Assembly (NCBI GenBank): GCA_964486045.1
Contig: CAZALK010000020.1
Location: 16,985-80,984 of the forward strand
Direction: 5' to 3'
Length of the DNA stretch: 64,000 nt
From: an uncultured archaeon
GTDB taxonomy: Archaea > Asgardarchaeota > Lokiarchaeia > Sigyniarchaeales > SOKP01
Shown: positions 28,144-52,626 of the stretch, piece after piece
Layout: each line of letters opens with the position of its first letter
Position numbering within the stretch: position 1 is the stretch's first letter
Position numbers and translations under genes: made by a program
The notes under the pieces: generated by a model
Database searches by the model: none
Told to the model about the DNA's origin: nothing
What the model saw: only the letters and a program-made list of their open reading frames with translations

Positions 28144-28269
28144 ATGATTATTATAATACTAAGGTAATTTTGATAGACTTAGAAACCATTTATTTTTTTC
28201 TATTTATATCAAATGCCTTAAAAACAGTTTAGATAGGTATTTTCAGAATCAAACTTATCACGAAGATCT

Positions 28270-28908
28270 TTATTCCCTTTTAACGATGTCTAATTGTTCT
28301 AATTTTTTAAGTGCATCAGCAATCTCATTTCTTTTCGAGCTTAACATTCTCGAAATTTTCAGAGCTGAATTTTTTCCAGTGCATAATAAAGCAATTTGAA
28401 AATCATAATCGGTTATTAAACCCATTGTCAAGACTTTTTCTAATACACTTTTTGCGACCAGCAATTCAGGAAATCCTTCTGCGATTTTTCCTCCCCTTGT
28501 TAGATTTTCAACATCAGCATTTAATGTTTGAAATCGACCCTTTTCCGTTGTAGCTCTAAAGACTTTAAGATCTGACTGATGCTTTTTCCAAAATCTTTTT
28601 GCAATTTTATGAATTACATCCTTTATTTTTTCTGTATCATCATCTGCGTCAGAAATCGAACAAAATAAGACTCTAGATAAAGGATGATAATAAATTAGAA
28701 CAGTTGAATCTTCAGATTCTATAACTCTATTCATCTCATTCACTCGTCTTCCCTTTACCATTGATTCTTGAATGATATCGATTGTTTTACTAATCACATT
28801 AAAAAATCCAGTTAAAATATCATCTTGGATTTTTTTTAATTCTTTAAAGGTTGATTCAAAAAGTGAAATTCCATTATCTCCATCGATTAAATAAACTTTA
28901 TATATCAA
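28270..28908 (-). CDS. longin-like (SNARE-like fold) domain + C-terminal winged-helix protein
   Basis: 212 aa with a TTG start. IYKVYLIDGDNGISLFESTF..ILTGFFNVISKTIDII..TVLIYYHPLSRVLFCSISD follows a beta-beta-alpha-beta-beta-beta-alpha pattern. It aligns with the cytoplasmic tail of the 18788..23590 protein. The C-terminal ALKISRMLSSKRNEIADALKKLEQLDIV is wHTH-like. Confidence 0.55.
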   Translation of the reverse strand: MIYKVYLIDGDNGISLFESTFKELKKIQDDILTGFFNVISKTIDIIQESMVKGRRVNEMNRVIESEDSTVLIYYHPLSRVLFCSISDADDDTEKIKDVIHKIAKRFWKKHQSDLKVFRATTEKGRFQTLNADVENLTRGGKIAEGFPELLVAKSVLEKVLTMGLITDYDFQIALLCTGKNSALKISRMLSSKRNEIADALKKLEQLDIVKRE

Positions 28909-29059
28909 ATTTTCAACAAATTTGCACTATATTCTTCTTATAAAAGTAATAAAATCTCATCCTTTTGAATTTTTATTAAATCAAGTTTCTAAATAATTAA
29001 AATTAAAAGCTGAAAATTTATACATTTTATAAAAACTATTTAAATTCACGATTTCAAGA

Positions 29060-30307
29060 ATGAAAACAAAGAAAGTATTTCTTTTTATGTTCTTATTTTT
29101 TTTTCCGGTATCAATTTCAGCTTATCCGAACTTACCGACACCATCAACAATGTTGGATAATTTTCCATTCACATCTTCCCCTGATTATGGTGTTTCTAAT
29201 TATAATATTACCCAAAGTGTAAAATATAATATAGAAATCAACTTTACTTTAACTCACAAATCAGGTCCTGGTTCCTATTATTTTAAATTTGCACGATTAA
29301 ATAACAGAATGCCAAACTCAACAAAGTCTCAATATACTCCCCCTTATCAAGAGAGTAATCTTTTATATAATAATATAACAGGATACTCAGTGCTTAATAT
29401 GGACCATAATGACCAATTTAATAACACTTATGACTCTTTTAACGCAACATTACTACCCGAAGAAACAGTTACATTAAGTCAACACTATATCACTGAAGTA
29501 AATGCTATCAATTTTCTGGAAGTTGATATGGCAGATATTGAGGTCTATAATACGTCAGATGAAATATTCTCTTTATATTCTAACAATACAGAACTATATT
29601 ATGAGCGAAACAATTCCGTTTTAGTTGATTTGTCTAATAACCTTGTAGATCCAGCTGATAATCCGATAGAAAAAGCGCAGAAGATTTTTAACTGGGTTAT
29701 AAGCAACCTTGAATATAATGGAGAGTTACCTGCTCAAGAAAAGGGAGCCCTTTGGGCTTATAATAATCTAAAGGGAGATTGTAGTGAATATTCGAGTTTG
29801 ATGATTACATTATTACGTATTCAAGGTATACCAGCTCGCAAAATAACCGGATTCTTAGTATCTAATAACCTCGCTTTGAGACCTCAAGCAGGTAATTCTT
29901 GGAACTTCTATGTCTCAGATTCAGGCGATAACATGTTAGGACATGCTTGGATTGAATATTATGTTCCTAATATTGGCTGGATTGCAAGTGATCCTACTTG
30001 GAAAACAGGTTATTTTAATAATATTGATTATCTTCGGTTCCATCTCAATGTAGGAGCGAACATCTTTTTTCCTCCTGATAGTACTGTGAGTGAGTTTGCT
30101 AATCCCATTTTTGCTTATTCTGGAGGAGCAACCTTTACATTTAGTTATGACATTGATATAACCGTTATAGAGTCGAACCTGTTACCGTTGGAGCAATTCC
30201 CATTATTGTTTGCTATATTTATTGGGGTAGGGGCTGCCGCTGTGCTATTTACACTGATTATTATAATAAAAAGAAGTCGCAAGAAAGATTTTTTTGAATA
30301 TGAATAA
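29060..30307 (+). CDS. secreted/membrane-anchored transglutaminase-like cysteine protease-fold protein
   Basis: It has a signal peptide (KKVFLFMFLFFFPVSISA). The Cys-His-Asp core is GDCSEYSSL...GHAWIEYY...ASDPT. A C-terminal TM anchor is followed by KRSRKKD, and an oligo-T run follows the stop. Confidence 0.8.
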   Translation: MKTKKVFLFMFLFFFPVSISAYPNLPTPSTMLDNFPFTSSPDYGVSNYNITQSVKYNIEINFTLTHKSGPGSYYFKFARLNNRMPNSTKSQYTPPYQESNLLYNNITGYSVLNMDHNDQFNNTYDSFNATLLPEETVTLSQHYITEVNAINFLEVDMADIEVYNTSDEIFSLYSNNTELYYERNNSVLVDLSNNLVDPADNPIEKAQKIFNWVISNLEYNGELPAQEKGALWAYNNLKGDCSEYSSLMITLLRIQGIPARKITGFLVSNNLALRPQAGNSWNFYVSDSGDNMLGHAWIEYYVPNIGWIASDPTWKTGYFNNIDYLRFHLNVGANIFFPPDSTVSEFANPIFAYSGGATFTFSYDIDITVIESNLLPLEQFPLLFAIFIGVGAAAVLFTLIIIIKRSRKKDFFEYE

Positions 30308-30339
30308 ATAATTCCAAGATTTAGTTTTCTTTTTTTTTT

Positions 30340-31806
30340 CTAAATATAAGTATGGATTAACTCCAGCAGATTTTTTGAGAAATCTGGTAAGTTTTTCTCT
30401 ATTTTTTTAATTTCAAGAGATTTTTCAATAAACATTAGTAAATATAAGTTATATTTTTCAACTTGGATTTTTTTAAAAACAACTTTCTTAGAGTCGTCAG
30501 CAATTCCGGTGGATACTAAAAAATCTTGTTTCAATACTTTGAATTCCTTAAAGGTTTTATACAAGGTTTGAAAGTGAGGTGCTGAGATTTCAAAAACCCT
30601 GTCAGATATCTCAGATTTTGAAAAATTGGATAATATTATTCCATTTTCGTTAAGTAATAAAATTGCGTCTGAATTCGTTTTTCTTGCGAATTGCTTCAAT
30701 TGATTTCTGAATAATTCTCGATTAGGACTTAACTGAGAAAGTCCATATGAATAAGCAGTAATAAGACTCCAATGGTCGAAAATACTAGTTTGGAATATTT
30801 TAGTTAAAAATCGATCAGATCTCTTTTCTACCTCATCAGCAATAATTTCTAAATTTTTAAATATTTCTTTTGAACCCTTCAGATCAGGATCGAATTTATT
30901 TAAACACACAACTATGGGCGGAAATTCATCTAATTCGACTAATATTTTCGAAATTCTTTGGAAAAGATTTAATGCTTCTTCAATTCTCTCTACATCTTGT
31001 ATATCAATAAAGAAGAAAATTAGATCAACATTATATAAATAGACTTGACTTTGCTCAAGAAATCTTTCTAAATATTTTTTTTGGCCACCTATATCCCATA
31101 GAGAGATTAACGAGTTCTGTTCTTCAAATATATTCTCTTCTGTTCTTTCAACACCTTTAGTAGGTAATGATTTGATAATTTCTGAATATTTCTTTCTGAT
31201 TCCATAAAGAAAACTTGATTTACCAGCCTTATCTAATCCTGTCAATAATATTTTAATTTGTCTTTTTGGAGAAAAAGGATCTTTTAATTCTTTTGTAAAC
31301 TCGAATAGTTCTTCTCTAATATCATCCATTATTCGTTTCTGGTCATTAAATTCTTTTACATTCTGAATTTGTGTAGCTGTTTTATCGATTATAATCCTTA
31401 AATATTTCATATTTTCATAAAAAAAAACCTTATCTTCTTCGTCAATTAATACAGTTATTGTCGCAGCTAGTGCTTGACCGCGTGCTTTTTCATCAGGGAT
31501 AAGAAAAAAATAAGTTAAGCCATTCAATTTTAAATCAGGAAAAGGAAGAATTCCAAAGTAGTTAACTCCTATGTCTGATCCCTGAGAATTTTGATAAACT
31601 GAATCACCCATAAGCAAACTAATAGTTTTCATAGCTATTAGAAGTCCTGATTTCTCTTCTAGGTTAGAAGGCCATATTATTCTAGGTGTTGGGCCTTTTT
31701 CATCAAAAATACTTAAAACAACCGCTTTTATTAGATTGGATTTTTTGTCACCTGTATCGTTTCCTTTCATCTTCTTCTTATTCGAATTTGAGTCGGTTTT
31801 TGCCAA
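30340..31806 (-). CDS. three-domain GTPase: N-terminal longin-like domain + Rag/Gtr-like G domain + C-terminal roadblock-like domain
   Basis: 488 aa. The N-domain covers about aa 25-145 (LIKAVVLSIFDEKGPTPRIIWP...ILPFPDLKLNGLTYFFLI). G1 is LLTGLDKAGKSS, G3 is WDIGGQ, G4 is NKFD and G5 is QTSIFDHWSLITAYS..LSP (as in Rag TSIWD...LIP). About 125 aa of alpha/beta C-domain follow. It ends in TAG. Confidence 0.7.
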   Translation of the reverse strand: MAKTDSNSNKKKMKGNDTGDKKSNLIKAVVLSIFDEKGPTPRIIWPSNLEEKSGLLIAMKTISLLMGDSVYQNSQGSDIGVNYFGILPFPDLKLNGLTYFFLIPDEKARGQALAATITVLIDEEDKVFFYENMKYLRIIIDKTATQIQNVKEFNDQKRIMDDIREELFEFTKELKDPFSPKRQIKILLTGLDKAGKSSFLYGIRKKYSEIIKSLPTKGVERTEENIFEEQNSLISLWDIGGQKKYLERFLEQSQVYLYNVDLIFFFIDIQDVERIEEALNLFQRISKILVELDEFPPIVVCLNKFDPDLKGSKEIFKNLEIIADEVEKRSDRFLTKIFQTSIFDHWSLITAYSYGLSQLSPNRELFRNQLKQFARKTNSDAILLLNENGIILSNFSKSEISDRVFEISAPHFQTLYKTFKEFKVLKQDFLVSTGIADDSKKVVFKKIQVEKYNLYLLMFIEKSLEIKKIEKNLPDFSKNLLELIHTYI

Positions 31807-31969
31807 TGTATTCCCTTATCTCTTGCATTAAAATAAGTGATGTTAGATTTTTATTATTATCTCTAACTTATAGTTTAATAAAATCTTGAAATCACATTAA
31901 TAGATCCAAAATAACAATTATTATTAAATCATTACTTTTCTCTCTGAAAAACTGATAATTAAAAAAAAA

Positions 31970-33778
31970 TTATGAAAAAAATCCCAATCTTACTAGTTTA
32001 GACGGTAAAAAGATTCTATTTACAAAATCCTCTAGAGTTAGATTACTTTTTGTAAGTTCAGTTAAAGATATATATTCAATTGCACCATTTTGGATAAACT
32101 GGTGGTAAACCTCTTGATTTTTAACTTTTTGTATTACATTAATTTCAGAATCTTCCCGAAAATGAGCAGTATTTGTATAATATGACATTTTTCCTTTGAA
32201 TTGGGGAATCGCTACTCCTGGAAAATGTTTTAGATCTAATTTTGCAAATCTGGAGGGTGATTTTTCAGAGGTATTTTCACTTAATACATGGCGAATATTA
32301 CTATTCTTAGATAGCTCTTTACAGACTTGATTCATCTCAATTAGGATTTTTTTGCCAAAAGTGAATACATCTGAACCTTCGTGCAGCTCGTAATCTGTTA
32401 AGAATTTAATAGCTTCGTTTAAACCAATAAAACTTATTGATAAGTATTGATTTTCTAAATTATAGAGATTCTGATTCTTAATATTAGTATTAAATAACGG
32501 CAAGTGATTTGACTGTAACCTTCTTCTTATGATATCATATTTTTTTAGTAAAATCCTAGAAGATAAATTCATTTTAGCTTTGAGTATCTCTAAGAAATCA
32601 TCTTCATCCTTACTCAGATAAGCAAAGCGAGGAAGGTTCAAACAAACCTCTTGAAGCATCCCTTGGTTATCATAACTAGGATAAGAAATTTTTTTACCTT
32701 TTTCATCATTGAAAAGGTGAGCATTTGAATTTAATAAAATTGGAGTTCTCATTGTTAATGTTTCATCCCAGACTTTATGATAAGCATCACCATACTTATT
32801 TAACAGTGTTTCATTAATATAAATTTCATGTTTGGGAGTATTAAATGGATTTTTATTATCATCACCTCCTTTAAAATTATAGGTAAAGGAGTTAAATATC
32901 TTCAGACAATCCTCATAATAATCTTCATAACATCCCTCGATTTTTCCAAAGGGTCCAACTGCAGGGTATTTTAATAAATATTTAACAATAGTAGGGTGAG
33001 TCATAATAGTGGTTGGAGGAATTGTCCGACCGGTTATTACTGAAAAATAATTCATTTCATAAATGAAATTCCTTATTATATGATTTAAATCTTGTTCATT
33101 AGATTCTTTAACATATGGTGCTAAGTAGATATTAATATTATTATATCCTTGACTTCCACAAATTTCATTTTGAGTTAATAATAACCATTTAATTAAATGA
33201 TCGCAGGCTTCCCTTAAGTTTTTTGCTGGTTTAAGTTTGCAACAAGGAAGATTTTTATTTAGAGGTGGTAAGCCATTTTCTAAAACGATACTGGGATCCC
33301 AAATTTGAGTCAGTGGTTTTAAATCAAAATATCGCAACTTATGAATATGGATGTCTCCGTATAAATGAGCCTTGGATTCTTCATTGGTGAGAATTCTTAA
33401 ATGAGCATATTCTTCAGAGATTCGATTTGAAGCCCAATTATGTATTTTCTCGGGGTTTATCACAATTTTTGGGTAATCAACCAAACCCTTTTCGAGAATT
33501 TCTTCATAATCCATTAATGGCATTCCAATTCTAGTGTATAATTTACGTTCATTTTCAAAATGTTGTTCAGAAAGTATTGAGCATACAATTTCTCTTATAT
33601 GCGGTCCAGAAAGAAATTTGATGCCAGAACTAATGATCCTTCTTACTACAAGTTCAGTAATCCTCTTAGCTTTGTCTTCACTCAAGTTAGTCTCTTTAAC
33701 AATGCTTTCAAAAATTATCGGGGAGTTAAAATCTGTTAAATCCCCTTCAGTTCTGAAAACTTTTGGTAATAAATCCAT
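31970..33778 (-). CDS. class III (anaerobic) ribonucleotide reductase NrdD-like protein with N-terminal ATP-cone
   Basis: 602 aa. The N-terminal KVFRTEGDLTDFNSPIIFESIVKETNLSEDKAKRITELVVRRI is an ATP-cone pattern. The C-terminal YYTNTAHF...GAIEYISL resembles the NrdD blocks. The extreme C-terminus is LVRLGFFS. Confidence 0.5.
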   Translation of the reverse strand: MDLLPKVFRTEGDLTDFNSPIIFESIVKETNLSEDKAKRITELVVRRIISSGIKFLSGPHIREIVCSILSEQHFENERKLYTRIGMPLMDYEEILEKGLVDYPKIVINPEKIHNWASNRISEEYAHLRILTNEESKAHLYGDIHIHKLRYFDLKPLTQIWDPSIVLENGLPPLNKNLPCCKLKPAKNLREACDHLIKWLLLTQNEICGSQGYNNINIYLAPYVKESNEQDLNHIIRNFIYEMNYFSVITGRTIPPTTIMTHPTIVKYLLKYPAVGPFGKIEGCYEDYYEDCLKIFNSFTYNFKGGDDNKNPFNTPKHEIYINETLLNKYGDAYHKVWDETLTMRTPILLNSNAHLFNDEKGKKISYPSYDNQGMLQEVCLNLPRFAYLSKDEDDFLEILKAKMNLSSRILLKKYDIIRRRLQSNHLPLFNTNIKNQNLYNLENQYLSISFIGLNEAIKFLTDYELHEGSDVFTFGKKILIEMNQVCKELSKNSNIRHVLSENTSEKSPSRFAKLDLKHFPGVAIPQFKGKMSYYTNTAHFREDSEINVIQKVKNQEVYHQFIQNGAIEYISLTELTKSNLTLEDFVNRIFLPSKLVRLGFFS

Positions 33779-33970
33779 GATGAGGTTATTATCGATTTTT
33801 TTTAGTTTTAATATTTACCTTTGAATTATTATATTCAAAAACCTTAAAAAAAAAAATTATTAATGGATTACATTAGATGTTAATTTTACTTTTTACATGA
33901 TTGTACTCAATCTTTAAATAGATCCATAAGGAGCATTTAGTTTGAGTACTAAAGCTTTTTATAGAATTTC

Positions 33971-34798
33971 TTGACTCTCTTTATGTTATTTTATAGGGAG
34001 AACGTAAATTATTATATGTCAAAATTATACTCATATTCCTCTTTACAACGATTTTTTAGCAGTATTTATTATATCTTGCAGGAGATTGATACAAAAATTG
34101 TTGAAGTCTGGTGTGAAATTCCAAGGATTACATTTTTTAAGAATCTTAGTAATTCTAAGCTTAGAGATTTCTTAGGGAAGTTTGAATTTATCTCCATTAA
34201 GAAGGGGAACTATATTTACTATGTTGTAATTAATAAAATATTATTTATCATCGATTGCATCAAATATTTACAATTTGACATTAAAAATCTTTCTGAAATT
34301 TTAGACTATAGTGGATTTGAGACATTAATAAAAGAGATTTTATCTAAAAACAGTTATCGGTCAATTACAAACTTCCGATTTTCAGATAAAAATAAGGTAG
34401 GATCAGAAAATTCACAGAAAAGGTATGAAATTGATGTTATAGGAATTTATTATAATTTTATTTTAATTATAGATGCAAAACAATGGAAACATAGAGATAC
34501 GTTTGGTTCATTAAATAAAGCAGCAACAAAGCAATATCATAGATTATTAGCCCTAAAAAGAAATCCAGGAGTCTTCGCAAAACTTATCTCTGAAATACTA
34601 GGTGAAAAACCCAATAAAAAAAAACACTTTCCATTAATATTAATTCCCGTTATTGTAACACAAGAAAATAATTATATTAAATTAAATGATGATCAGGTAC
34701 CACTTGTTTCGATTTATGAGTTAAATGCTTTTTTAGATGAATTACCAAACAACTTACACTATTTTAAAACCGTTCAAGTAGATAGAGTTTTTTTATAG
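33971..34798 (+). CDS. hypothetical protein with PD-(D/E)xK nuclease-like core
   Basis: YEIDVIGIYYNFILIIDAKQWK provides a D...(D)-x-K motif in a beta-strand context. The likely start is the ATG at 34016. It ends in TAG. Confidence 0.4.
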   Translation: MTLFMLFYRENVNYYMSKLYSYSSLQRFFSSIYYILQEIDTKIVEVWCEIPRITFFKNLSNSKLRDFLGKFEFISIKKGNYIYYVVINKILFIIDCIKYLQFDIKNLSEILDYSGFETLIKEILSKNSYRSITNFRFSDKNKVGSENSQKRYEIDVIGIYYNFILIIDAKQWKHRDTFGSLNKAATKQYHRLLALKRNPGVFAKLISEILGEKPNKKKHFPLILIPVIVTQENNYIKLNDDQVPLVSIYELNAFLDELPNNLHYFKTVQVDRVFL

Positions 34799-34868
34799 AA
34801 AAAATATTAATTTTCACCTATTTGTGAAAAATAATTAATCAATTAAAAAGATGCATCAACCCAAGATG

Positions 34869-35954
34869 TTATTTTTTTAATCCTAAATAATGTTTTACTT
34901 GTTTTTTTATAAGATTCATAGCAATAGAAATAATACCACTCTTAACTTGAGGATGTGAAAACAGTATTAAAATCATATCTTTAAGACTCGAAGTTTCTAG
35001 ATCAAGAAATGCCATATCTAAAACTCCCTCAGTACCTCTCACTGATATCGATCTTAAAGCTCCAGCACTTAAACCATCGATGATATCCGCACTTATCATT
35101 GAAAGATTTATCCCTATTGTACCAAATAAGGATTCCGATATTCTACTTGAAATAGCTGACGCTAACATTGTCCCATCTGTTTTTATGATTGCTGATGCCT
35201 CAATTTTTGAATCTAAAGTTATCAATTCTTTTAATATCTCATTCATCGAAGCTGGTGGTAATTTATTTTTTGGTTCTTTCTGAGAAGTTGATTTAGGTTC
35301 TTTTAGTTTTATTTTATTTACGATAATTTTCTTTGATAGAAAACCAAGAACCTCCGACATGTCTTTCTCTAGTTTCTTCTGTTTTATAATAGCAAGATCT
35401 GAGTCTACAGTTTTAAGGGGGAGCGGAGTTGTAGATGGTTTAGGTTTCTTAATTTCAACTTCGAGAACAGATTTTTTAAGTTCTTTTAGTGCATCTGAGA
35501 TAACTCCATTAGATTTAGGGATGAGAGAAATGAATTCTTTTTTGTCTGAGAGAATAGTACCTTTAAATGGTTTCGGGGTTATTTCTTGTAATATTGGGGG
35601 GGTTTTTTCTTCTAAATTGTGTTTCGTTTCTAGAGGTATTTCTGTAAGGGAATCCGATTCAATTTCTTCATTATCTTCTATTGGAATATCACCAAGCTTT
35701 GAAAAATCACTTAGTTTCTCTTCTTCTATCGGTATCTCATGTAATTCTAATTCTTCTGGTTCTAGATCTTCCGGTACTTTAGGTTCTTCTATTATTTGAG
35801 TAATAGGAACTTTTTTTGCTTTTTCTTCTTTAACGGTTTTAGGTTTTTTAGGTCTAGAGGTTCTAGTAGAAATTGGTAGTAATGCCCCACATGTTCTACA
35901 GATACGAGTTTTTTTCTCATTATTTGTTGTCCCACAGTTATTACAAATTATTAT
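34869..35954 (-). CDS. zinc-ribbon + acidic linker + Roadblock/LC7 (MglB/LAMTOR-like) domain protein
   Basis: The track gives only 34869..35360 (the roadblock part: ASAIIKTDGTMLASAIS...ISVRGTEGVLDMAFL). The frame stays open upstream to the TAA at 35960..35958, which I checked codon by codon. That extension encodes ICNNCGTTNNEKKTRICRTCG (CxxC..CxxC) plus an E/P/K-rich linker. No ATG/GTG/TTG lies in the extension; an ATA at 35954..35952 is 8 nt after GGGGGAG. Confidence 0.65.
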   Translation of the reverse strand: MIICNNCGTTNNEKKTRICRTCGALLPISTRTSRPKKPKTVKEEKAKKVPITQIIEEPKVPEDLEPEELELHEIPIEEEKLSDFSKLGDIPIEDNEEIESDSLTEIPLETKHNLEEKTPPILQEITPKPFKGTILSDKKEFISLIPKSNGVISDALKELKKSVLEVEIKKPKPSTTPLPLKTVDSDLAIIKQKKLEKDMSEVLGFLSKKIIVNKIKLKEPKSTSQKEPKNKLPPASMNEILKELITLDSKIEASAIIKTDGTMLASAISSRISESLFGTIGINLSMISADIIDGLSAGALRSISVRGTEGVLDMAFLDLETSSLKDMILILFSHPQVKSGIISIAMNLIKKQVKHYLGLKK

Positions 35955-36190
35955 TGATTATTCTCCCCCAGTATGATTTTAGCACTAATACTACAGTAAA
36001 TTTTAGAAATTTTTAGTTATTAGTTTTATAGTGTTTAATTTATAAATAGAAATTTGATATTATTAATATTAGCAACTTGAATTTGCCAATTTAATTTGTA
36101 CTTTTAATGAATATTTTTAAAATTCCTAATTCTAATTACAGTCATTAAAGTTGAATAAAAAATAGTCATAAATTATTTTAGAAACTGCTA

Positions 36191-37165
36191 TTATTTATAG
36201 AGGATCTCTTTCAATATTTTTGCGAAAGCTTCAAAGTCTTCTTTGTTAAAAACAGGATTATCTTTTAATAGAAGTAAGTAATAGGGTGTGGACTCTTTTC
36301 GTAACGAAATCTGTTTAAACATGAAATTTTTCCCATATCTTTGTACAATCATTCTTTCCTCGTACTTTTTCTCCAAAACGCTTGTGGATTGAAAGGAATC
36401 ATGAAGAGTGAGAAAATATGGGGTTGAAGCGGTGAGTAGGTGCCGAGTCTCATCATCCTTATAATAAGATCCAATTATTAGTGAATTGTCGTCAATTACT
36501 ACTACCCCACCGGAATCTACCTTTTTAGCAAATTCTACAATTGTTTTTTCAATTAATTCAGATTTTGGATAGAGACTTAAAAGGATTTCAGACATGGCTG
36601 CTATTATTGATGAGAATTCATAAATGGAGGTTTCATAGAAATAAATTTCCTTATAATCTGTAGCGTTTCTTATTAGTTCCTTTAAATCTATTATAAGATT
36701 TTCCATTTCATTTAAGGCACCCCTCTTTAAAGCAGGATCATATTTATGAAGGAAAACATAGATTGGTGGTTCAATTTCCAATTTGTTAAACTGCTCAATA
36801 ACATCTTTAAAATAACTTATTGCTTCAGGTATTCGCGGTTTATTCTGGATATCAATAACATAGATGGCAATTTCAGTTCCATCAAAGTATTTATTTGGCT
36901 TTTTTAAATAGGAGATCCTATAGCTAACCTGCCCGCCTAAATCCCATTCACTTATCTCTTTTCCTAGAAAATCGAATATTCTCCTTTGCGCTCCTCTCGT
37001 AGGAGATAATACAGCAATTTTTGAGAATTCTCTTTGGAGAGATAAAATTATGCTTGTCTTGCCTGCATCATCTAGCCCCGTAAATAAAATCTTTGAAGAT
37101 TCGGGTTCAGCTTCTAGATCATCTTTTTTTAAATACAAGATTGATTGTTTAAGATTTTTCTCCAT
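36191..37165 (-). CDS. Rag/Gtr-like small GTPase (G domain + C-terminal roadblock-like domain)
   Basis: 324 aa. G1 is ILFTGLDDAGKTS, G3 is EWDLGGQ, G4 is FLHKYD (His-Lys-x-Asp as in RagA HKMD) and G5 is YETSIYEFSSIIAAMSEILLSLYP (compare RagA [21 protein letters not shown]). A roughly 125-aa C-domain follows (VVVIDDNSLIIGSY...). Confidence 0.75.
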   Translation of the reverse strand: MEKNLKQSILYLKKDDLEAEPESSKILFTGLDDAGKTSIILSLQREFSKIAVLSPTRGAQRRIFDFLGKEISEWDLGGQVSYRISYLKKPNKYFDGTEIAIYVIDIQNKPRIPEAISYFKDVIEQFNKLEIEPPIYVFLHKYDPALKRGALNEMENLIIDLKELIRNATDYKEIYFYETSIYEFSSIIAAMSEILLSLYPKSELIEKTIVEFAKKVDSGGVVVIDDNSLIIGSYYKDDETRHLLTASTPYFLTLHDSFQSTSVLEKKYEERMIVQRYGKNFMFKQISLRKESTPYYLLLLKDNPVFNKEDFEAFAKILKEILYK

Positions 37166-37259
37166 AATTCAATTTCACCTATAATCTTATAATTAGAAAT
37201 TTACAAATATATTCTTTATCAAAATACAAAATTATATTATTGTTTATTTAGATTACGGA

Positions 37260-38615
37260 TTAAAATTTGTTTTGGAAAAATAATTTGAAATCCTGATAAT
37301 TTCTAATTTCTACCGGACTTGGGATCTCTTTGTTATTTTGGATAATATTCAACGAATTTGGTATTTTTGGTGTGATTTTAATTAATGAGATAATCTCGTT
37401 AGGGAACTTTGCAGGATCTGCCGTTTCGAAAATTATACCCTTGCATTTTGCATCTAAAGTATAATTATTTCTGTAAATATCTAAAGATGCCCATCCAACA
37501 GCCCCATGAGGTTCGATGATCCTGTGATATCTTTTGTAAAAATTTATAATTGTCTGTTTTGTTAACTTATCATTTATTGAATATGACACGATTTCACGTC
37601 TAATTTTGCCTAAATTTGGATATTTTTGCATTACACCAGTCTCATCAATCTGACCGTTATACAAATCTATAATTCGTGCAAAGTTCGAAGGGTGGCCAAC
37701 GTTCATAGCATTACTAATACAATTTTTTGAAGGTTCTACTTTTTCATATATACCTGTTTCTAAAAATCTTGGAAATTCGTTGTTCTCATTTACTGCTGAG
37801 ATAAATTTTCGTACAGGTAAACCCATTTTATATGCTATTAATCCACCCATAAGATTTCCAAAGTTCCCAGAAGGCACTGAAAAAATAACTTTCTCATCAG
37901 TTTCTTCAATAACACGGGAATAACTATAGAAATAATAAATAGCTTGAGGGATTAATCTCCCAATATTTATTGAATTCGCTGAAGAGAGCCCAGAGTCTTT
38001 TAAATCAGGATCAGCAAAAGCAGATTTGACTATACTTTGACAATCATCAAATTTCCCATTAATCCCAATTGCTGTTATGTTCTTTCCAAGTGTGCTCATT
38101 TGTTTTCTTTGTAAATCACTTATTTCATTTCTAGGGAATAAGACGATAACTTTTATTCTTTTAACATCAAAAAATGCTTGAGCTACAGCTCCACCAGTGT
38201 CTCCTGATGTTGCAGTAAGAATCACACTTTTCTTATCTTCAATTTCAAGAAAATATTCCATAATTTTTGCGAGTGTTCGAGCCCCAAAATCTTTAAAACT
38301 CGCGGTTGGACCTTGGTCTAGATAACAGACATAATCATTTTCGCGAATTTTTTCAATGGGCACTAAAAAATTAAGAGCATCTTTTAAAATTTTCTTGAGG
38401 TCATTATTAGGTATACAGCCACCTATAATTTCAGAAATAACCTCAAATCCAACATCATTTATCTTCAAATTTTTAAAGTTATTGATAATTTCCATAGATA
38501 ATTTAGGAATTTTATTCAGCATATATAATCCTTTATCTAACGCTTGCCCTCTTAGTACCGCTGTTTTAAAATCAACATCCGGGGTTCTATAATTTGTGGA
38601 ATGATATTTTATCAT
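37260..38615 (-). CDS. thrC: threonine synthase
   Basis: 451 aa. The PLP-lysine block PTASFKDFGAR, SGDTGGA and SANSINIGRL match long-form ThrC. Confidence 0.9.
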   Translation of the reverse strand: MIKYHSTNYRTPDVDFKTAVLRGQALDKGLYMLNKIPKLSMEIINNFKNLKINDVGFEVISEIIGGCIPNNDLKKILKDALNFLVPIEKIRENDYVCYLDQGPTASFKDFGARTLAKIMEYFLEIEDKKSVILTATSGDTGGAVAQAFFDVKRIKVIVLFPRNEISDLQRKQMSTLGKNITAIGINGKFDDCQSIVKSAFADPDLKDSGLSSANSINIGRLIPQAIYYFYSYSRVIEETDEKVIFSVPSGNFGNLMGGLIAYKMGLPVRKFISAVNENNEFPRFLETGIYEKVEPSKNCISNAMNVGHPSNFARIIDLYNGQIDETGVMQKYPNLGKIRREIVSYSINDKLTKQTIINFYKRYHRIIEPHGAVGWASLDIYRNNYTLDAKCKGIIFETADPAKFPNEIISLIKITPKIPNSLNIIQNNKEIPSPVEIRNYQDFKLFFQNKF

Positions 38616-38782
38616 AGATTTTTCAAAACAATTTCAATCGTTATAATAAAATCAATCAACGCTCAAAAATTAAATACTTATGACTTATCTTTAAAATTTT
38701 TTGAAGACAATTTTAATTCCTTAAAATAGTTTAATACATAATAATGATTCATATCTCTGAAAACCATTGAGGTGACAATAAT

Positions 38783-39532
38783 ATGAATAATGAAGATAAA
38801 GAGAAAACCTATGGGATTGAAGAAATATATGAAATGCTTGATAAAAAATTGAATCATGAAGAAATTTACAATTATATTGAAACAGGTATATTAGAGGGAC
38901 AGATGGTTGATGATAAATGGCAGATGACTCAAAAATCTATAAATAGTTTTATGAAAACTTTAGCTGAAGAAAGAGCATATATGGTTGGACCTTTTACACT
39001 GGATATTTCAGATATTAAATTAGAAGGTAGGATTCTAGACATAGGAGGAGGTGGAGAAGGGATTATAGGACAATTTAAGAAAGAACAAGTAATCGCAATT
39101 GATAAAAAAAAGAACGAGTTAGAAGGAGCACCTAAAAGTGGTGACTTAAAAATAATTATGGATGCGAAAGACTTGAAATTCTTAGATAATACATTTGATA
39201 CTGTTACCGCGTTTTTTTCGATGATGTACGTTCCTTTTAGTGATCACATTCTAATTTTTCAAGAAATTTGTAGAGTGTTAAAAATAGATGGGGAATTTTT
39301 ACTCTGGGATGTTAATATCCCTAAGAGGACAAATAAATCAAAAGATATTTATGGGGTGACCCTAAAGGTTAAAATTCCTGAAAAAATGATAGAAACGGGT
39401 TATGGTGTATTTTGGGTTAGAAAAAAAGATGTAGATTATTACAAACAGGTTGCTACAAATACTGGATTTAAGATTTTAGAGCAAAAAGTAGAAAATCAAA
39501 TATTCTTCTTACGATTCAAGAAAGAGATATAA
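38783..39532 (+). CDS. SAM-dependent methyltransferase with N-terminal excisionase/MerR-like HTH
   Basis: ILDIGGGGEG (motif I) and FDTVTAFFSMMYV (motif II/III) are present. The N-terminal 60 aa look like a helix-turn-helix DNA-binding domain. GAGGTGA lies 7 nt before the ATG. Confidence 0.65.
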   Translation: MNNEDKEKTYGIEEIYEMLDKKLNHEEIYNYIETGILEGQMVDDKWQMTQKSINSFMKTLAEERAYMVGPFTLDISDIKLEGRILDIGGGGEGIIGQFKKEQVIAIDKKKNELEGAPKSGDLKIIMDAKDLKFLDNTFDTVTAFFSMMYVPFSDHILIFQEICRVLKIDGEFLLWDVNIPKRTNKSKDIYGVTLKVKIPEKMIETGYGVFWVRKKDVDYYKQVATNTGFKILEQKVENQIFFLRFKKEI

Positions 39533-39581
39533 TAATTAAGTTGAAATTATGACAAATTCTACCATTAATCAAACGGGTGTC

Positions 39582-40106
39582 TTATAAAGATTCTGCTAGC
39601 TCGTTAATTTTAACTAGTACTTCTTCTGGAGTGCTTACTCCATAGACAATATCATTTCTCCTATCATCTATTTTTTGATTGGCAATTTTAGAAGACCACC
39701 CTTCAACACTTGACAAAGCAACAATAGGTTTATTGTATATCCATGCGAAACTAATTTCAGATAAGGTTCCTGCCTTACCACTAATAGCTAAACATATATC
39801 TCCCGTGAGAACAACTACTATATTTCTCGCTTGAGAAAAGGGACATGGAATTACAATATCTACATATTTATTAGCACGATCTTTTTCCTTGTATGGTATA
39901 ATTCCAATGGTTAATCCATTATTTTCTTTGACACCTTTACAAATAGCCTTCATTACTCCAGATAACCCACCACAAGCTACAGCGTAGTTATTTTTTGCGA
40001 GTAATCTCCCAATTTCAATTGTTTTATCCTCTATTTCTTTACTGATTTCGCTTGCTCCAATAACAGATATTACTGCTTTATAATTATCTTTAAAATTAAA
40101 TTTCAG
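39582..40106 (-). CDS. TIGR00725/LOG-like (SLOG superfamily) protein
   Basis: The track ORF begins at 39953, but the in-frame upstream sequence reads ISVIGASEISKEIEDKTIEIGRLLAKNNYAVACGGLSGVM. That is the conserved N-terminal Rossmann block of the family. No ATG/GTG/TTG is present; the candidates are CTG at 40106 (9 nt after GGAGGG) or ATA at 40115. Confidence 0.6.
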   Translation of the reverse strand: MKFNFKDNYKAVISVIGASEISKEIEDKTIEIGRLLAKNNYAVACGGLSGVMKAICKGVKENNGLTIGIIPYKEKDRANKYVDIVIPCPFSQARNIVVVLTGDICLAISGKAGTLSEISFAWIYNKPIVALSSVEGWSSKIANQKIDDRRNDIVYGVSTPEEVLVKINELAESL

Positions 40107-40144
40107 CTTAATTATCCCTCCGTTTATTGTAATTAAAAGAATTT

Positions 40145-41158
40145 TTAAGACATGGTTTGTCTTTTTATCCCAATGTTAACTAAATCATTTATAATTGCTG
40201 ATGCTGCCTCAAAACCACCTGCTCCTCTCCCTATTAAGATTATTGGTCCTGCGTATTTAGTTTGTAATTCGATTACATTTAAAGTTCCATTTATATTTAA
40301 TGGGGAAGACTTGTCAATTAACATTGGTTTAACAATAAGTTTATTTGATTCTGCCATCGCTAAATGTTTTATTACATAACCCTCTGATTTTGCAAGATCT
40401 ATTGCCTGAGGTGTTATTTTTGAAATGCCTTCAATTTTAACATCAGTTATGCTTTTTGAATAATCCAGTAAATCATTAGCTATTATTACCAATTTGCCTG
40501 CCGCATCATACCCCTCAATATCTAACGTCGGATCTGTTTCAGCATATCCCAATTCCTGTGCTTCACTCAATGCAAAAGCAAAATTAACACTTTCTGCAGT
40601 CATTCTACTCAAAATATAGTTATTCGTCCCATTAAGGATAGCCTTGATGCTTAAGATTTCATTTCCAATTAAATTCTCTCTTATACCTAAAGTTGGAACA
40701 GAACTAGCTACCGTAGCTTCATATTTTAAACTACAATTATTTTCTTTAGCTATGTTCTTAATTTTTTCATATTCTAAGTAGAAAGGACCTTTATTTGAAG
40801 AAATCACATCTATATGGTTCTTTAAAGCTTCAATGATGTGAGTAAGCCCAGGTTCACCCGTTTTGTGATTAGTGGGTGTGGTTTCGATACAAACATCAAT
40901 TTTTAGTTTTGAAATTAAATCAATTGGCGTTACACCATTTTTCCAGTTTGGCAAATTTTTGATGTCTTTCTTGTTATTAAGTAACTCCTTTAAGCCAATT
41001 CCATCTTCTTTAATTAAAGCTCCATCAATCTCAAATATTGAGTTCACATTAAATTTTAAATCAAATTTTCGTTCAAAAAATTCTTCTTTTTCATACAATA
41101 ATTGAAGAAAACTAGTACCTACGACACCCATTCCAATTAAACAAATTTTAATGTCCAT
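40145..41158 (-). CDS. hom: homoserine dehydrogenase
   Basis: The N-terminal Rossmann motif is IKICLIGMGVVGTS. The central and C-terminal blocks NGT-NYIL and AQELGYAETDP are canonical. Confidence 0.9.
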   Translation of the reverse strand: MDIKICLIGMGVVGTSFLQLLYEKEEFFERKFDLKFNVNSIFEIDGALIKEDGIGLKELLNNKKDIKNLPNWKNGVTPIDLISKLKIDVCIETTPTNHKTGEPGLTHIIEALKNHIDVISSNKGPFYLEYEKIKNIAKENNCSLKYEATVASSVPTLGIRENLIGNEILSIKAILNGTNNYILSRMTAESVNFAFALSEAQELGYAETDPTLDIEGYDAAGKLVIIANDLLDYSKSITDVKIEGISKITPQAIDLAKSEGYVIKHLAMAESNKLIVKPMLIDKSSPLNINGTLNVIELQTKYAGPIILIGRGAGGFEAASAIINDLVNIGIKRQTMS

Positions 41159-41257
41159 TTGCCTCAGGAGATCTTTTTTATTCTAAGATTTAGTTGATAA
41201 ATTAAATTAGTCGGCTACCATACAATTACCACGTTAATTATAAGAAATTAATTCCTT

Positions 41258-41749
41258 CTAATTCGTTATGAGAAATAATTCTTTTTCATCACAAATCATT
41301 CTAATTTCATTTACTATCTCATTTTTTGTAGTTCCTTCAGAAAATTCAATTTTAAGTTTTACATTACTAACTTCTTCAAATTCCGTAAAAACTGCATGCA
41401 ATTCTAGCACTCTAATACTTTTAGAAGCCAATCTTTGTAATGTATCTAGAATATCTGTACCAAAAACATGTCCAGTTAAGAGAACAATTATACCCTTTCT
41501 TTCTATCCCATAACTAACATTCTCAATTTGAATATTCTTTTCTTTTAACTCCAATTTAATATTTTGCATACTTATTTCTTTTATATCTTCAATCAGCTCA
41601 AAATTGATATTGACAGGTATCATATTATTTATCTTCCTATCATGGAAGTGCAATATGCCATAAATGTTCCCCCCATTCTGCGAAATTGGCTTTATTAATT
41701 CTATTAAACTTCCTGGAGTATCAGGGATCTTTACTTCTAAATTTATCAT
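41258..41749 (-). CDS. ACT-domain (amino-acid-binding) regulatory protein
   Basis: 163 aa. LEVKIPDTPGSLIELIKPIS has the beta-alpha-beta ACT signature, and a second ACT-like half is present. It lies directly upstream of hom and ends in TAG. Confidence 0.65.
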   Translation of the reverse strand: MINLEVKIPDTPGSLIELIKPISQNGGNIYGILHFHDRKINNMIPVNINFELIEDIKEISMQNIKLELKEKNIQIENVSYGIERKGIIVLLTGHVFGTDILDTLQRLASKSIRVLELHAVFTEFEEVSNVKLKIEFSEGTTKNEIVNEIRMICDEKELFLITN

Positions 41750-41804
41750 AATTTAATCATTTCAAATTTTATTTTTTTTGCAGTTATATTGAATATGCTA
41801 CTTC

Positions 41805-42767
41805 TTAAAATCTAATAACTTCTACAGATTCAGTTCCATCGTTTATCTTCAAAAGATTTGGATCATTAATAATTTTACCTATTAAATTCGCATCTAACCC
41901 ATATTCTTGAAAAATCTGTATCAATTCATTTGTTTTATGTACTGGAGCAGTTAATATGAATGAAGTAGTGAGATACATTTGAATAAATGTTTGTAGATCA
42001 TAATTTTCATCTAATAATACTGGTGGTATTTTGATTTTTGTAATATCCACATTAGCACCTACATTTGAATATTTTACCATTTGTAATATCGTTCCAAAAA
42101 TTCCGCCATTAGATACATCCTTTGATGAGTTAGCTAAATTCTTTTTTGCAATAGCATTCATAGCTTTTCTTTTCTGTAATACATGTTCAGATAATTTAAA
42201 AGTAGTTGTGTCATAATAAAGATTACTTGCTGTGCTTACTCTTCCATCAAAATCAACAGCTAAGATTATATCATCTCCTACTTGGGCGTTTCCAGCAGAG
42301 ATATAATCTTCCTTCTGAATTTCACCAATCATGGTAGAACTTAATTCATAACATTTCCCATGTATATTTGTATGACCTCTTATAATTGGAACTCTAAATT
42401 TATTAGATCCCTCACATATCCCCTTTAGAATTTCTTCACATGATTCAGGATCCTTTACAGAAATTATTATACTTGCTGCGAGTGGGGTACCACCACATGC
42501 ATAAATATCATCAACACTGACTAAAATAGAACTATACCCTGCTCCGCGCCCAAAATTCTCGATAAAAGATGTTTTTATCCTATCGGTTGTTACAAGTATA
42601 TATTTTTCGTTATTTTTTATCGCTGCCGCGTCTTCTCCGATGTCTAAATAGATATCTGTACTTTTAAAAGAATTTTTATCAATATACTGAATTATCGGGG
42701 TAATTTCTTTCTTTTCAATAATATTTTTATTGGTTTTAATGGTTTCAGCAATCTTTTTAAGTATCAT
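41805..42767 (-). CDS. AIR-synthase-related (PurM/ThiL/HypE superfamily) protein
   Basis: DIGEDAAAI...LVTTDRI is the N-domain motif of the PurM superfamily. The 320-aa length is compatible with it. The subfamily is not resolved. Confidence 0.6.
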   Translation of the reverse strand: MILKKIAETIKTNKNIIEKKEITPIIQYIDKNSFKSTDIYLDIGEDAAAIKNNEKYILVTTDRIKTSFIENFGRGAGYSSILVSVDDIYACGGTPLAASIIISVKDPESCEEILKGICEGSNKFRVPIIRGHTNIHGKCYELSSTMIGEIQKEDYISAGNAQVGDDIILAVDFDGRVSTASNLYYDTTTFKLSEHVLQKRKAMNAIAKKNLANSSKDVSNGGIFGTILQMVKYSNVGANVDITKIKIPPVLLDENYDLQTFIQMYLTTSFILTAPVHKTNELIQIFQEYGLDANLIGKIINDPNLLKINDGTESVEVIRF

Positions 42768-42862
42768 TTATGAAATTAATATAAAGTTATTAATAATTAA
42801 TTTTTCTTAATTTACCTAAGGAAATTTAAAATTTATAATATAAACAAAAATTATTTTATACA

Positions 42863-44362
42863 ATGGAAAGATTATTTGAATCTTCGCTAATTAAAGGATT
42901 TATATTTAGTGCCTACGGGGAACTAGGACCACAACCCGTTTATACATGGCCTAATTATTATACCGAAAAAGAAATAAAACAAATTAAAACTGAAGAAAAG
43001 AAATCTCTAATTTTATCATTAAGGGATGTCACTCAAATCTCAATAAAGAATCTCAGCTTATTTATAAGTGACAGAGAATTCTCACAAGAAAAAGACTTCC
43101 AAAATCTAAGATATTTCGCTATTTTACCCTATCCTGATTTTAAAGCAACATCTCTCACTTATTTTCATTATATTGAAAATGGTACTTTTGACCTACCTGT
43201 CGCCACCGCATTTTCAATATTAGTTGAGGAATATAGAAGAAGTTTCTTATACAATAATATAAACAGAATTAAACCGATAGTATCTGAATTCTTTACTCGG
43301 TTTGATCAAAAATTACTTGAGAATTATCCTCCTAAAGAAGAAATAGAAGAATTTTTTATTGAGTTGTTTAAACAGCTTAATGAGATTGAAAAAAATCCAT
43401 CAACCCCGATCACCTCTCACCGAAAATTAAAACTTATTTTTGCAGGTTTAGATGATTCTGGTAAAACCAGCTTCCTTTTAAGTGTTGATCGTAAATATAG
43501 TAAACTTATTGGGTTAAAACCAACTACAGGAGCGAGTATCAAATCAATTGAAGCTCTAGGTGCTACAATCTTTTTGTGGGACTTAGGTGGCCAGTTGAAA
43601 TTTCGAAGAAAGTATATAGATAAGGCTGAGATTTACTTATATGAAGCTGATTTAATTTTCTATTTTATTGACGTAAGAAATGAAAGTAGATTTGAAGAAA
43701 GCATAGAATATCTTCTTAGCATAAAAAAAGTATTAGGAGATTTTAAACAAAATACTCCAATTGTCTACATATTATCAAAAGGAGATTCTGATATTATAAA
43801 TACAGGAGAAATCAAAAATAATATTGAAAATGTGAAGAAAAAACTATTTGAAATTACTCCTAAAGAATCCCCTGAATTATATGTCACCAGTATCTTTCAA
43901 ATTTTTACAATTCTAAGGGCATTTTCTTCTGGAATTTCAAAATTAAGCCCTAATAGAAATTTAATAAATCATAACCTTAGAAATTTCTCTCTTAAAACAA
44001 AGGCTTTTTTAACATTACTCTTAAGTGAAGATGGTTTAGTTTTAGCAGACTTCTATTCCTCAAAAGCAAAGAAACTAACAAAGATTCCCAAATCTGAGGA
44101 ACTCATAAATGTTTTTGAGGTAACTGCACCTCAATTTGCCATGCTATTTAAAATCTTCTCAAGATTCAAAGCTTTAAAAGAAGAAGAAGCGATATTTAAA
44201 GTGTCTGATTCTGTAATCCTTTTTAAAAGGATCAAAGTTGTTGAGGAAAACATGTTCATTCTATTTCTGGTTGATAATGAGAAAAGAAAGGAAAAAATCA
44301 ACATTAAATTGCCCGTTTTCTTAGAGCAAACAAAAGAGTTATTGTTAAGATATATTGCATAA
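42863..44362 (+). CDS. three-domain GTPase: N-terminal longin-like domain + Rag/Gtr-like G domain + C-terminal roadblock-like domain (paralog of 30340..31806)
   Basis: 499 aa. The N-domain reads LIKGFIFSAYGELGPQPVYTWP...ILPYPDFKATSLTYFHYI. G1 is LIFAGLDDSGKTS, G3 is WDLGGQ, G4 is LSKGD and G5 is VTSIFQIFTILRAFSSGISKLSP. The C-domain reads LTLLLSEDGLVLADF.... Confidence 0.7.
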   Translation: MERLFESSLIKGFIFSAYGELGPQPVYTWPNYYTEKEIKQIKTEEKKSLILSLRDVTQISIKNLSLFISDREFSQEKDFQNLRYFAILPYPDFKATSLTYFHYIENGTFDLPVATAFSILVEEYRRSFLYNNINRIKPIVSEFFTRFDQKLLENYPPKEEIEEFFIELFKQLNEIEKNPSTPITSHRKLKLIFAGLDDSGKTSFLLSVDRKYSKLIGLKPTTGASIKSIEALGATIFLWDLGGQLKFRRKYIDKAEIYLYEADLIFYFIDVRNESRFEESIEYLLSIKKVLGDFKQNTPIVYILSKGDSDIINTGEIKNNIENVKKKLFEITPKESPELYVTSIFQIFTILRAFSSGISKLSPNRNLINHNLRNFSLKTKAFLTLLLSEDGLVLADFYSSKAKKLTKIPKSEELINVFEVTAPQFAMLFKIFSRFKALKEEEAIFKVSDSVILFKRIKVVEENMFILFLVDNEKRKEKINIKLPVFLEQTKELLLRYIA

Positions 44363-44381
44363 GTGCATTAATATACACACT

Positions 44382-45284: not shown

Positions 45285-45358
45285 AATTCATGAATTTTTC
45301 GTTGTTATTTAATATAAAGAGAAAAATGATTCTATTATTCTGCGTGAACAATTATCAT

Positions 45359-52536: not shown

Positions 52537-52626
52537 ATAAATCTAACCCATTCATTTATAAAGTGAAATGTATTTAATTAGATAGGAATTAAGCAATTTA
52601 TTTAATTTAATTGGGGACTTTGAATT

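Follow-up and report, generated by a model that had tools for sequence, protein, structure and literature searches.

Roadblock proteins regulate or scaffold small GTPases, as MglB does with MglA and Ragulator with the Rag proteins (PMC10933270). Lokiarchaeota have been reported since 2016 to encode Rag-like GTPases with a fused roadblock domain (PMC4917890), such proteins have been modelled in Promethearchaeum syntrophicum MK-D1 (PMC10933270), and in published trees the eukaryotic Rags are contained in an Asgard 'RagGtr' group (bioRxiv 10.1101/2024.02.28.582541). Asgard archaea are rich in Rag-, Arf- and Rab-like GTPases and also in roadblock and longin proteins, and what is lacking are pairings of a regulator with its GTPase. 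The stretch of lokiarchaeial DNA analysed here, 64,000 nucleotides (nt) of contig CAZALK010000020.1 (assembly GCA_964486045.1) with a G+C content of about 30% and hereafter called the window, contains a Rag-type GTPase gene followed by the gene of a roadblock-fold protein with an N-terminal zinc ribbon. The locus provides one concrete, deeply conserved candidate for such a GTPase–partner pair, with a crystal structure on the GTPase side.

In the Rag–Ragulator system, LAMTOR2/3 dock on the C-terminal domains of RagA/C, and this is the model for the docking proposed below. The window GTPase resembles RagA/B–RagC/D (Gtr1–Gtr2) in its HKxD G4 motif and in its TSI(W/Y) G5 motif with the following helix, and its C-terminal domain would sit where the Rag roadblock domain follows the G domain; the Rags form an obligate heterodimer of two paralogs, whereas the deposited ortholog of the window GTPase, 8YL2, is a homotetramer according to its PDB title. 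The predicted fold of the partner superposes on LAMTOR2/p14 of Ragulator/EGO with target TM-scores of 0.70–0.79, but there is one roadblock partner gene here, compared with four roadblock subunits plus a lipidated LAMTOR1, and the partner has a zinc ribbon and a charged linker instead. Archaea are not known to have a target of rapamycin (TOR) pathway. The likeness to MglA–MglB lies in a small GTPase gene that adjoins a roadblock-fold gene, MglB being a strong structural match of the partner; the differences are that the window GTPase belongs to the Rag type, has DxxGQ as its G3 motif and carries a putative roadblock domain of its own, and that the partner has a 230-residue zinc-ribbon/linker N-terminal extension, which MglB lacks. 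The best structural matches of the partner are stand-alone Asgard roadblock proteins (MK-D1 Roadblock3 9JUE, Roadblock2 9JQ8, the MK-D1 roadblock 7YH1 and the Thor roadblock 7F8M), found by Foldseek at E ~2e-7 and 15–21% identity over full-domain alignments. These are single-domain proteins of about 120 amino acids (aa), whereas the window protein has 361 codons with zinc ribbon and linker, and a sequence search with it finds only its own small family.

The closest described GTPase is LokiRagO, deposited as PDB 8YL2 under the title 'Crystal Structure of Homo Tetrameric RagA-like small GTPase from Asgard Lokiarchaeota (LokiRagO) in complex with GTP' and released on 2025-09-10. Its chain is MK-D1 WP_147663357.1, which stands beside human RagA in a published Rag-like alignment and is coded there as XGR, for unknown extension, GTPase and roadblock (Tran et al. 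2024, PMC10933270); no paper on LokiRagO or on PDB entries 8YL2, 8ZLA and 9M28 was found in the searchable literature. The window GTPase is a positional ortholog of LokiRagO, 48% identical over residues 23–322; an N-terminal extension and a G domain are common to both, as is a C-terminal domain that is by homology of the roadblock type. The two loci also share the convergent NERD-like gene, a longin-GTPase-roadblock gene (WP_147663355.1 in MK-D1) and a transglutaminase gene, and differ in that the MK-D1 locus has neither thrC nor the zinc-ribbon roadblock gene. Matching partners in MK-D1 is hard, as its GTPase genes as a rule do not share an operon with a roadblock gene (PMC10933270). Most eukaryotic signature proteins lie outside conserved neighbourhoods (Liu et al., bioRxiv 10.1101/2020.10.19.343400). 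The same authors describe a conserved Asgard operon of a roadblock (LAMTOR1-like) protein, a Rab-like GTPase and a DENN protein, which, like the present locus, is a conserved Asgard neighbourhood joining a roadblock-superfamily protein and a small GTPase, but its GTPase is Rab-like, distinct from the Rag family according to the authors, and a DENN protein is present.

The GTPase thus compared is of an already known, structurally characterised kind. For the zinc-ribbon/linker/roadblock family, or its link to a RagO-type GTPase, no description was found in the searchable literature, and the absence of the pair from the reference organism MK-D1 may explain this. What is new is the gene pair and the architecture of the partner, whereas the kind, a small GTPase with a roadblock-fold partner, is known; we regard the finding as one of moderate interest, with nothing categorically new and with an interaction that is putative.

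Conservation of the gene pair

The first-pass annotation, made from the letters of the window alone, had placed both open reading frames (ORFs) of the pair on one strand, with the roadblock gene next after the GTPase gene; both lie on the minus strand, at the positions that it claimed. Relatives of the GTPase are encoded by 186 species genomes in GTDB, and the loci of the best 80, 64–84% identical, were examined; three of these are uninformative, their contigs ending less than 300 nt past the GTPase gene. At all 77 informative species loci the roadblock gene lies downstream of the GTPase gene on the same strand. The spacer measures 108–295 nt in 74 species and 1.0–3.2 kb in the other three, because an unrelated gene has been inserted there on the opposite strand.

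The pair was found again on independent metagenome contigs (L089–L108) and in distant lineages. Locus L111 (GCA_054386575.1) has thrC, a RagO-type GTPase gene (50% identity), a gap of 39 nt and a zinc-ribbon roadblock gene, beyond which a NERD-like gene, a longin-GTPase-roadblock gene and a transglutaminase gene follow. At L086 the identity of the roadblock protein is down to 28%; the last 80 codons of a RagO-type gene stop some 128 nt ahead of the roadblock gene, and a further Rag-like GTPase is encoded downstream of it; at L112, three ECF-transporter genes are inserted between the GTPase and roadblock genes. The adjacency that had been noticed in a single stretch of DNA therefore recurs in 77 of 77 informative species and at the distant L086 and L111, and it does not extend to MK-D1 or L088 and is split in four lineages. 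The two genes have been same-strand neighbours since before the split of lineages whose roadblock proteins are now 28–29% identical, and the arrangement is old and widespread in Lokiarchaeota, not universal.

No zinc-ribbon roadblock gene is present at the loci nearest to that of MK-D1 (L081, L083–L085). ORFs of 307–309 aa at MK-D1-like loci were considered as roadblock candidates and were rejected, as they encode leucine-rich-repeat proteins instead. Leucine-rich-repeat proteins of about 310–330 aa adjoin RagO-type genes in separate lineages (L079 4908-5900, L083 6223-7146, L085 5094-6023).

A Rag-type GTPase of the LokiRagO kind

The product of 36191-37165 on the minus strand is, by its sequence, a Rag/Gtr-type GTPase and the ortholog of MK-D1 LokiRagO. 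Its assignment to the Rag/Gtr type, already made in the first-pass annotation, is upheld by Pfam, by the ranking of a profile search against PDB and by hhalign, which all concur, and the ortholog was deposited as 'RagA-like'. The Pfam search that had been recommended as a check places Gtr1_RagA (PF04670) above its curated cut-off and ahead of Arf, with 86.7 bits (E 2e-24, residues 25–238, cut-off 22) compared with 61.7 bits. Searched against PDB, a profile built from 72 homologs scores RagA at 70.4 bits, ahead of Arl3 (63.3), Gtr1 (59.8) and RagC (51.3), and the Rag alignments extend beyond the G domain. With human RagA, in a sequence identical to PDB 6ces_A, hhalign gives 98.5% probability for window residues 23–242 against RagA residues 7–224; the hhalign and hmmsearch alignments reach RagA residue 224–225 and so take in about 45 residues of the RagA roadblock domain (helix 1 and strands 1–2). 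In NCBIfam the sequence matches nothing beyond the generic small_GTP model, and this below the cut-off of the model. The 60 best PDB sequence matches listed comprise GTPases of the Rag/Gtr and Arf families and no MglA chain; the sequence is not MglA-like, and its best families are Gtr1_RagA and Arf.

The top PDB sequence match by far is 8yl2 (E 7.5e-88, residues 10–319), and this full-length alignment includes the C-terminal domain of the GTPase, whose roadblock fold is assigned by homology rather than from a model of its own. AlphaFold2 with 54 close homologs gave a mean predicted local distance difference test score (pLDDT) of 55.5, and less than 50 in the C-terminal domain, because the alignment was too shallow, its members being 77–88% identical to the query. 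The model was dropped for fold assignment; Foldseek ranks 8yl2 first and Gtr1/RagA after it, but with root-mean-square deviations of 13–15 Å.

The motifs GLDDAGKT, WDLGGQ, HKYD and ETSIYEFSSIIAAMSEILLSLYP are all present in the 324-aa product as they had been quoted, and the proposed likeness of G5 and its following helix to RagA holds as well: HMMER aligns ETSIYEFSSIIAAMSEILLSLYP with a 22-residue stretch of RagA, and both HMMER and hhalign set 'ETSIYEF...LYP' of the GTPase against 'RTSIWDE...LIP' of RagA. The G-domain motifs, namely G1 GLDDAGKT, switch I PTR, G3 DLGGQ with its catalytic Gln, G4 HKYD and G5 TSIY, are invariant in 54–72 homologs save for the histidine of G4 (residues 140–143), with K141 and D143 invariant and H140 conserved to at least 90% (alignments A1 and A4).

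In the N-terminal extension of the GTPase (MEKNLKQSILYLKK...), residues S8, I9, Y11, L12, K13 and K14 are invariant in 54 close homologs, and the hydrophobic moment is highest over residues 3–14. By analogy with Arf, this extension could be an amphipathic helix.

A zinc-ribbon protein with a roadblock fold

The C-terminal domain of the product of 34869-35954 on the minus strand is confirmed as a roadblock fold by structure prediction. AlphaFold2 with 100 orthologs models it at pLDDT 77–89 in the order helix-strand-strand-helix-strand-strand-strand-helix. A Foldseek search of this model against PDB gave 124 matches at E<=0.001, and the 50 that are listed are without exception roadblock proteins, or complexes containing them, at a probability of 1.00, with target TM-scores of 0.57–0.79 among these 50; they include MK-D1 Roadblock3 9jue, the Thor roadblock 7f8m, Streptomyces 3kye, LAMTOR2/p14 in Ragulator, and MglB. 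The 'clear Roadblock/LC7 domain' of the first reading stands where the fold is concerned and falls by sequence: the window protein has no match to Pfam Robl_LC7 (PF03259) at E<=1, and only 8 of 41 orthologs match this profile, weakly (best E 1.6e-4). A phmmer search of the protein against PDB returned 7f8m at E 0.25 only, and hhalign against the same Thor protein gives only 44% probability. The profile was of no use against PDB, being swamped by a spurious match to a 'Cake' repeat.

Full-length orthologs have 340–370 aa, are 49–75% identical and share one architecture, in which a C4 zinc ribbon is followed by a lysine-rich segment, a variable acidic linker, a conserved helix pair and a conserved C-terminal domain of about 130 residues. 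The CxxC..CxxC zinc ribbon had been recognised correctly: its cysteines are invariant in 41 orthologs, 37–39 of which match Zn_Ribbon_1 or DZR in Pfam (best E 1e-5), and the ribbon is modelled at pLDDT 71–78. The 'long acidic linker' was half right, since residues 63–135 are acidic (net -16) and residues 31–62 are basic (net +5). The linker has pLDDT below 50 in AlphaFold2 and carries three to four motifs of the L-x-E-I-P type (HEIP, GDIP, TEIP, QEIT). Its conserved islands are L70/E72/I73/P74, I89/P90 and L121–I124, the rest being variable (window 35550-35768, alignment A3); the three islands conserved in orthologs have the form L-x-(Q/H)-E-I-P, and distant homologs with 28–29% identity (P0379, P0386, P0392) retain LQSIP/LKPIP motifs. 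These L-x-(E/S/P/A)-I-P motifs look like short linear binding motifs, with the partner side putative. The helix pair, H151–167 and H184–208, is modelled at pLDDT up to 90 and has the signature 'LKQKxLEKDMxEVLxFLSKK', with invariant columns L194, E195, D197, M198, L202, F204, L205, S206 and K208.

A full scan of 1.84 billion cluster representatives found 94 members of the family at E<=1e-3, so that this is no generic roadblock protein, and the zinc-ribbon/linker/roadblock layout is retained down to 29% identity. The protein is thus a member of a small family confined to Lokiarchaeota.

Reading frame and start codon of the roadblock gene

The frame of the roadblock gene is open over 361 codons, from 35954 to 34872, and ATG, GTG or TTG first occurs at codon 199, which is why the program-made ORF list gives only a 163-aa ORF. 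It opens with TAA-TCA-ATA-ATA-ATT-TGT, the first ATA (35954-35952) lying two codons past the TAA and 8 nt behind GGGGGAG, a strong Shine-Dalgarno-like sequence. Since the orthologs begin with MIICxNCG, this ATA stands in the place of the ortholog ATG, and the gene probably starts at this near-cognate codon.

Among the 77 species, the homologous codon is ATG in 33, TTG in 25, GTG in 3, ATA in 9 and ATT in 7. The 16 species with ATA or ATT have sites of the GGAGG(G/A)GAG type 6–9 nt upstream (loci L001–L039), 12 of them offer no canonical start codon in frame from the preceding stop to the first cysteine of the zinc ribbon, and the ORFs of these genes are intact over 303–364 codons where the contig allows. 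Because of such non-canonical starts, gene callers mis-start the genes of this family, as in P0121, which is over-extended upstream, in P0122, which is truncated, and in L112, where the called start misses the zinc ribbon, which is encoded upstream of it; the family should be flagged as routinely truncated by gene callers.

A proposed dedicated partner of the GTPase

The reading that we favour, with a probability of about 0.4, is that the roadblock protein is a dedicated partner of the 324-aa GTPase. In this proposal, drawn by analogy with Ragulator, its roadblock domain, probably as a dimer, would dock on the roadblock platform of the GTPase oligomer, and the zinc ribbon, the basic segment and the LxEIP motifs would link the GTPase to a further surface or partner. 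The frequent weak starts (TTG, GTG, ATA, ATT) might hold the level of the partner below that of the GTPase. A physical interaction of the Rag–Ragulator kind would be plausible. In favour of a dedicated partner, gene order and strand persist through a deep divergence of the roadblock protein, and the pair outlasts the loss of thrC, which keeps its position at about 25 of the 80 species loci and at the distant L111 and L112, with only C-terminal remnants of it at L012 and L014, compared with 77 of 77 loci that have the roadblock gene. The roadblock family is, moreover, narrow and specific, as its 94 representatives indicate.

Other observations weigh against it. The pair is interrupted by opposite-strand insertions in four lineages, which encode a 393-aa enzyme-like protein (L021 7056-8237), a membrane protein (L032 7074-7586), a leucine-rich-repeat protein (L079 3038-6249) and an ECF transporter module (L112 5011-8354); from these insertions and the usual spacers of more than 100 nt it follows that co-transcription is not required and that the pair is no obligate operon. 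At L088 the roadblock gene has no GTPase gene upstream, and in MK-D1, where the zinc-ribbon roadblock gene is missing, the GTPase stop codon lies 8 nt from the NERD-like gene. Neither a second free-standing roadblock gene nor a LAMTOR1-like gene is found among the genes profiled in 27532-46231, a region whose profiled neighbours comprise thrC, NERD, NrdD, methyltransferase and SLOG protein. The fold of the partner matches Asgard roadblocks, MglB and LAMTOR2 about equally and does not separate a LAMTOR type from an MglB type; at the sequence level, hhalign detects no similarity of the partner roadblock domain to the C-terminal domain of the GTPase or, in a further difference from Ragulator, to an approximate LAMTOR2 sequence. 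The preference for Rag over Arf is small for the isolated G domain, with 69.8 bits for Gtr1_RagA over the entire domain and 61.7 bits for Arf over the first two thirds only. Finally, the mirror-tree correlation of the GTPase with the roadblock domain (r 0.76, partial 0.52 given NERD) is only marginally above that of the GTPase with the NERD control (r 0.69, partial 0.29); it reflects mostly shared phylogeny, though it leans in the right direction.

A serious competitor, if in our estimate a somewhat doubtful one, is that the two genes are held together by descent only, as parts of an old syntenic block without a direct link, the roadblock protein serving other GTPases or another process. The flanking genes for thrC, NERD, longin-GTPase-roadblock and transglutaminase are conserved in order too, so the whole block is syntenic and the adjacency of the pair may be inherited order. 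Spacers of 108–295 nt, which probably hold separate promoters, the insertions with one loss of adjacency, and the MK-D1 locus would all fit this explanation, as would the reports that MK-D1 GTPase genes generally lie outside roadblock operons (Tran et al., PMC10933270) and that GTPases and roadblock domains number in the dozens in Lokiarchaeota (PMC4917890). Mere descent accounts less well for a link that survives the loss of thrC, that holds down to 28% identity, and in which the strand is always the same and the gap shrinks to 39 nt at L111.

It could also be argued that the partner acts in the manner of MglB and binds the G domain, not the roadblock domain, as a GTPase-activating protein or exchange factor comparable to the MglB dimer on MglA. 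MglB structures are among the Foldseek matches at probability 1.00, several orthologs have been named 'predicted regulator of Ras-like GTPase activity (Roadblock/LC7/MglB family)' by JGI, the retained catalytic Gln of DLGGQ would suit such a role, and the classical arrangement in prokaryotes is a GTPase–roadblock gene pair like MglA/MglB (PMC9481161). We consider it unlikely, however, as the GTPase does not resemble MglA and already has a putative roadblock domain, which would offer the roadblock-to-roadblock docking known from Rag–Ragulator. With the pair conserved and an ortholog of the GTPase solved, the choice between a Ragulator-like and an MglB-like partner can be tested with two recombinant proteins.

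The favoured dedicated-partner reading has a bolder extension, in which the block of thrC, RagO-type GTPase and zinc-ribbon roadblock protein, with longin-GTPase-roadblock genes close by, would be an archaeal forerunner of Rag–Ragulator that tethers the GTPase, by way of the zinc ribbon, the basic segment and the LxEIP motifs, to a membrane or partner and reports the status of the threonine pathway; this analogy we hold to be quite improbable. There is even less to be said for the roadblock protein as a hub that serves the local cluster of Rag-like GTPases and pairs with the longin-GTPase-roadblock proteins, not specifically with the 324-aa GTPase. Three Rag-like GTPases within 14 kb of the window, the Rag-like GTPases on either side of the roadblock gene at L086 and the longin-GTPase-roadblock gene two genes past it at L111 are what such a hub would predict, but the immediate upstream neighbour is always of the RagO type, and the longin-type genes lie 2–6 kb off and occur in MK-D1 as well, which is without the roadblock gene. 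A defence module centred on the conserved NERD nuclease-like gene can practically be dismissed, since, in spite of the persistence of this neighbour and its weak PADLOC match to part of MkoA (E 1e-5), PADLOC profiles give no significant match for the GTPase or the roadblock protein, the NERD gene is convergent and not co-oriented, and the vertical conservation, at 64–88% identity across more than 77 species, is unlike that of mobile defence islands.

Locus layout and neighbouring genes

Features of the gene pair and of its surroundings, in window coordinates
Feature	Position	Strand	Evidence or remark
Rag-type GTPase gene, 324 aa, ATG start	36191..37165	-	ORF, Pfam Gtr1_RagA, PDB 8yl2 match
GTPase N-terminal extension, 22 residues, conserved	37100..37165	-	alignment of close homologs
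GTPase G domain, residues 23-200	36566..37099	-	motifs in translation, Pfam
GTPase C-terminal domain, ~124 aa, residues 201-324	36194..36565	-	position of Rag C-terminal roadblock domain
Intergenic spacer, 236 nt, AT-rich	35955..36190	-	sequence
Shine-Dalgarno-like GGGGGAG	35969-35963	-	8 nt before ATA codon
Zinc-ribbon/linker/roadblock gene, 361 codons, probable ATA start at 35954-35952	34869..35954	-	open frame, orthologs
N-terminal C4 zinc ribbon (CNNC ... CRTC)	35874..35954	-	invariant cysteines, Pfam in orthologs
Disordered linker, basic residues 31-62, then acidic 63-135	35550..35864	-	charge and motif counts
Helix pair before roadblock domain, ~residues 151-167 and 184-208	35331..35504	-	AlphaFold2, alignment
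C-terminal roadblock/LC7-fold domain	34872..35261	-	AlphaFold2 and Foldseek
Threonine synthase gene (thrC), 94-nt gap upstream of GTPase	37260..38615	-	Pfam Thr_synth_N and PALP
NERD-domain gene, convergent with roadblock gene	33971..34798	+	Pfam NERD
Homoserine dehydrogenase, 3 kb farther upstream	40145-41158	-	
Gtr1_RagA-family GTPase, 488 aa, ~180-aa N-terminal extension	30340-31806	-	
Gtr1_RagA-family GTPase, 499 aa, ~180-aa N-terminal extension	42863-44362	+	
NrdD-type anaerobic ribonucleotide reductase, between NERD gene and 488-aa GTPase gene	31970-33778	-	
MtrH-family methyltransferase	44382-45284	-	
tRNA Pro-CGG, sole tRNA of window	52462-52537	+	
146-aa serine-rich ORF, antisense to linker-coding region	35359-35799	+	

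No neighbour of the block is more persistent than the NERD gene, which is present at nearly all loci and in MK-D1 lies directly beside the GTPase gene. GTPase, NERD, longin-GTPase-roadblock and transglutaminase genes form a block common to the window, MK-D1 and L111, and the NrdD gene is absent from the corresponding place in the latter two. Of the Rag-like GTPases in the 14-kb cluster (324, 488 and 499 aa), the 488-aa protein shares 39% identity, from end to end, with MK-D1 WP_147663355.1 ('LGR', for longin-GTPase-roadblock). A scan of the spacer within the pair for promoters and terminators of the bacterial type gave nothing above shuffled sequences; the consensus is bacterial and the host archaeal.

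The presence of threonine synthase and homoserine dehydrogenase genes near the GTPase gene ties an amino-acid pathway to a Rag-type GTPase, which may be coincidental. The serine-rich ORF opposite the linker-coding region is probably no gene but a side effect of the acidic, lysine-rich coding strand.

Close homologs of the studied genes all come from metagenome-assembled genomes (MAGs) of Asgard archaea, most of them under the label Promethearchaeota (formerly Lokiarchaeota). In the JBHL series (L010, L018, L020, L024, L028, L029, L041, L050) MAGs are labelled Hod-, Hermod-, Thor- or Odinarchaeota; their GTPases are 70–84% identical to orthologs from Promethearchaeota MAGs, with identical synteny, and the phylum labels of these records look unreliable.

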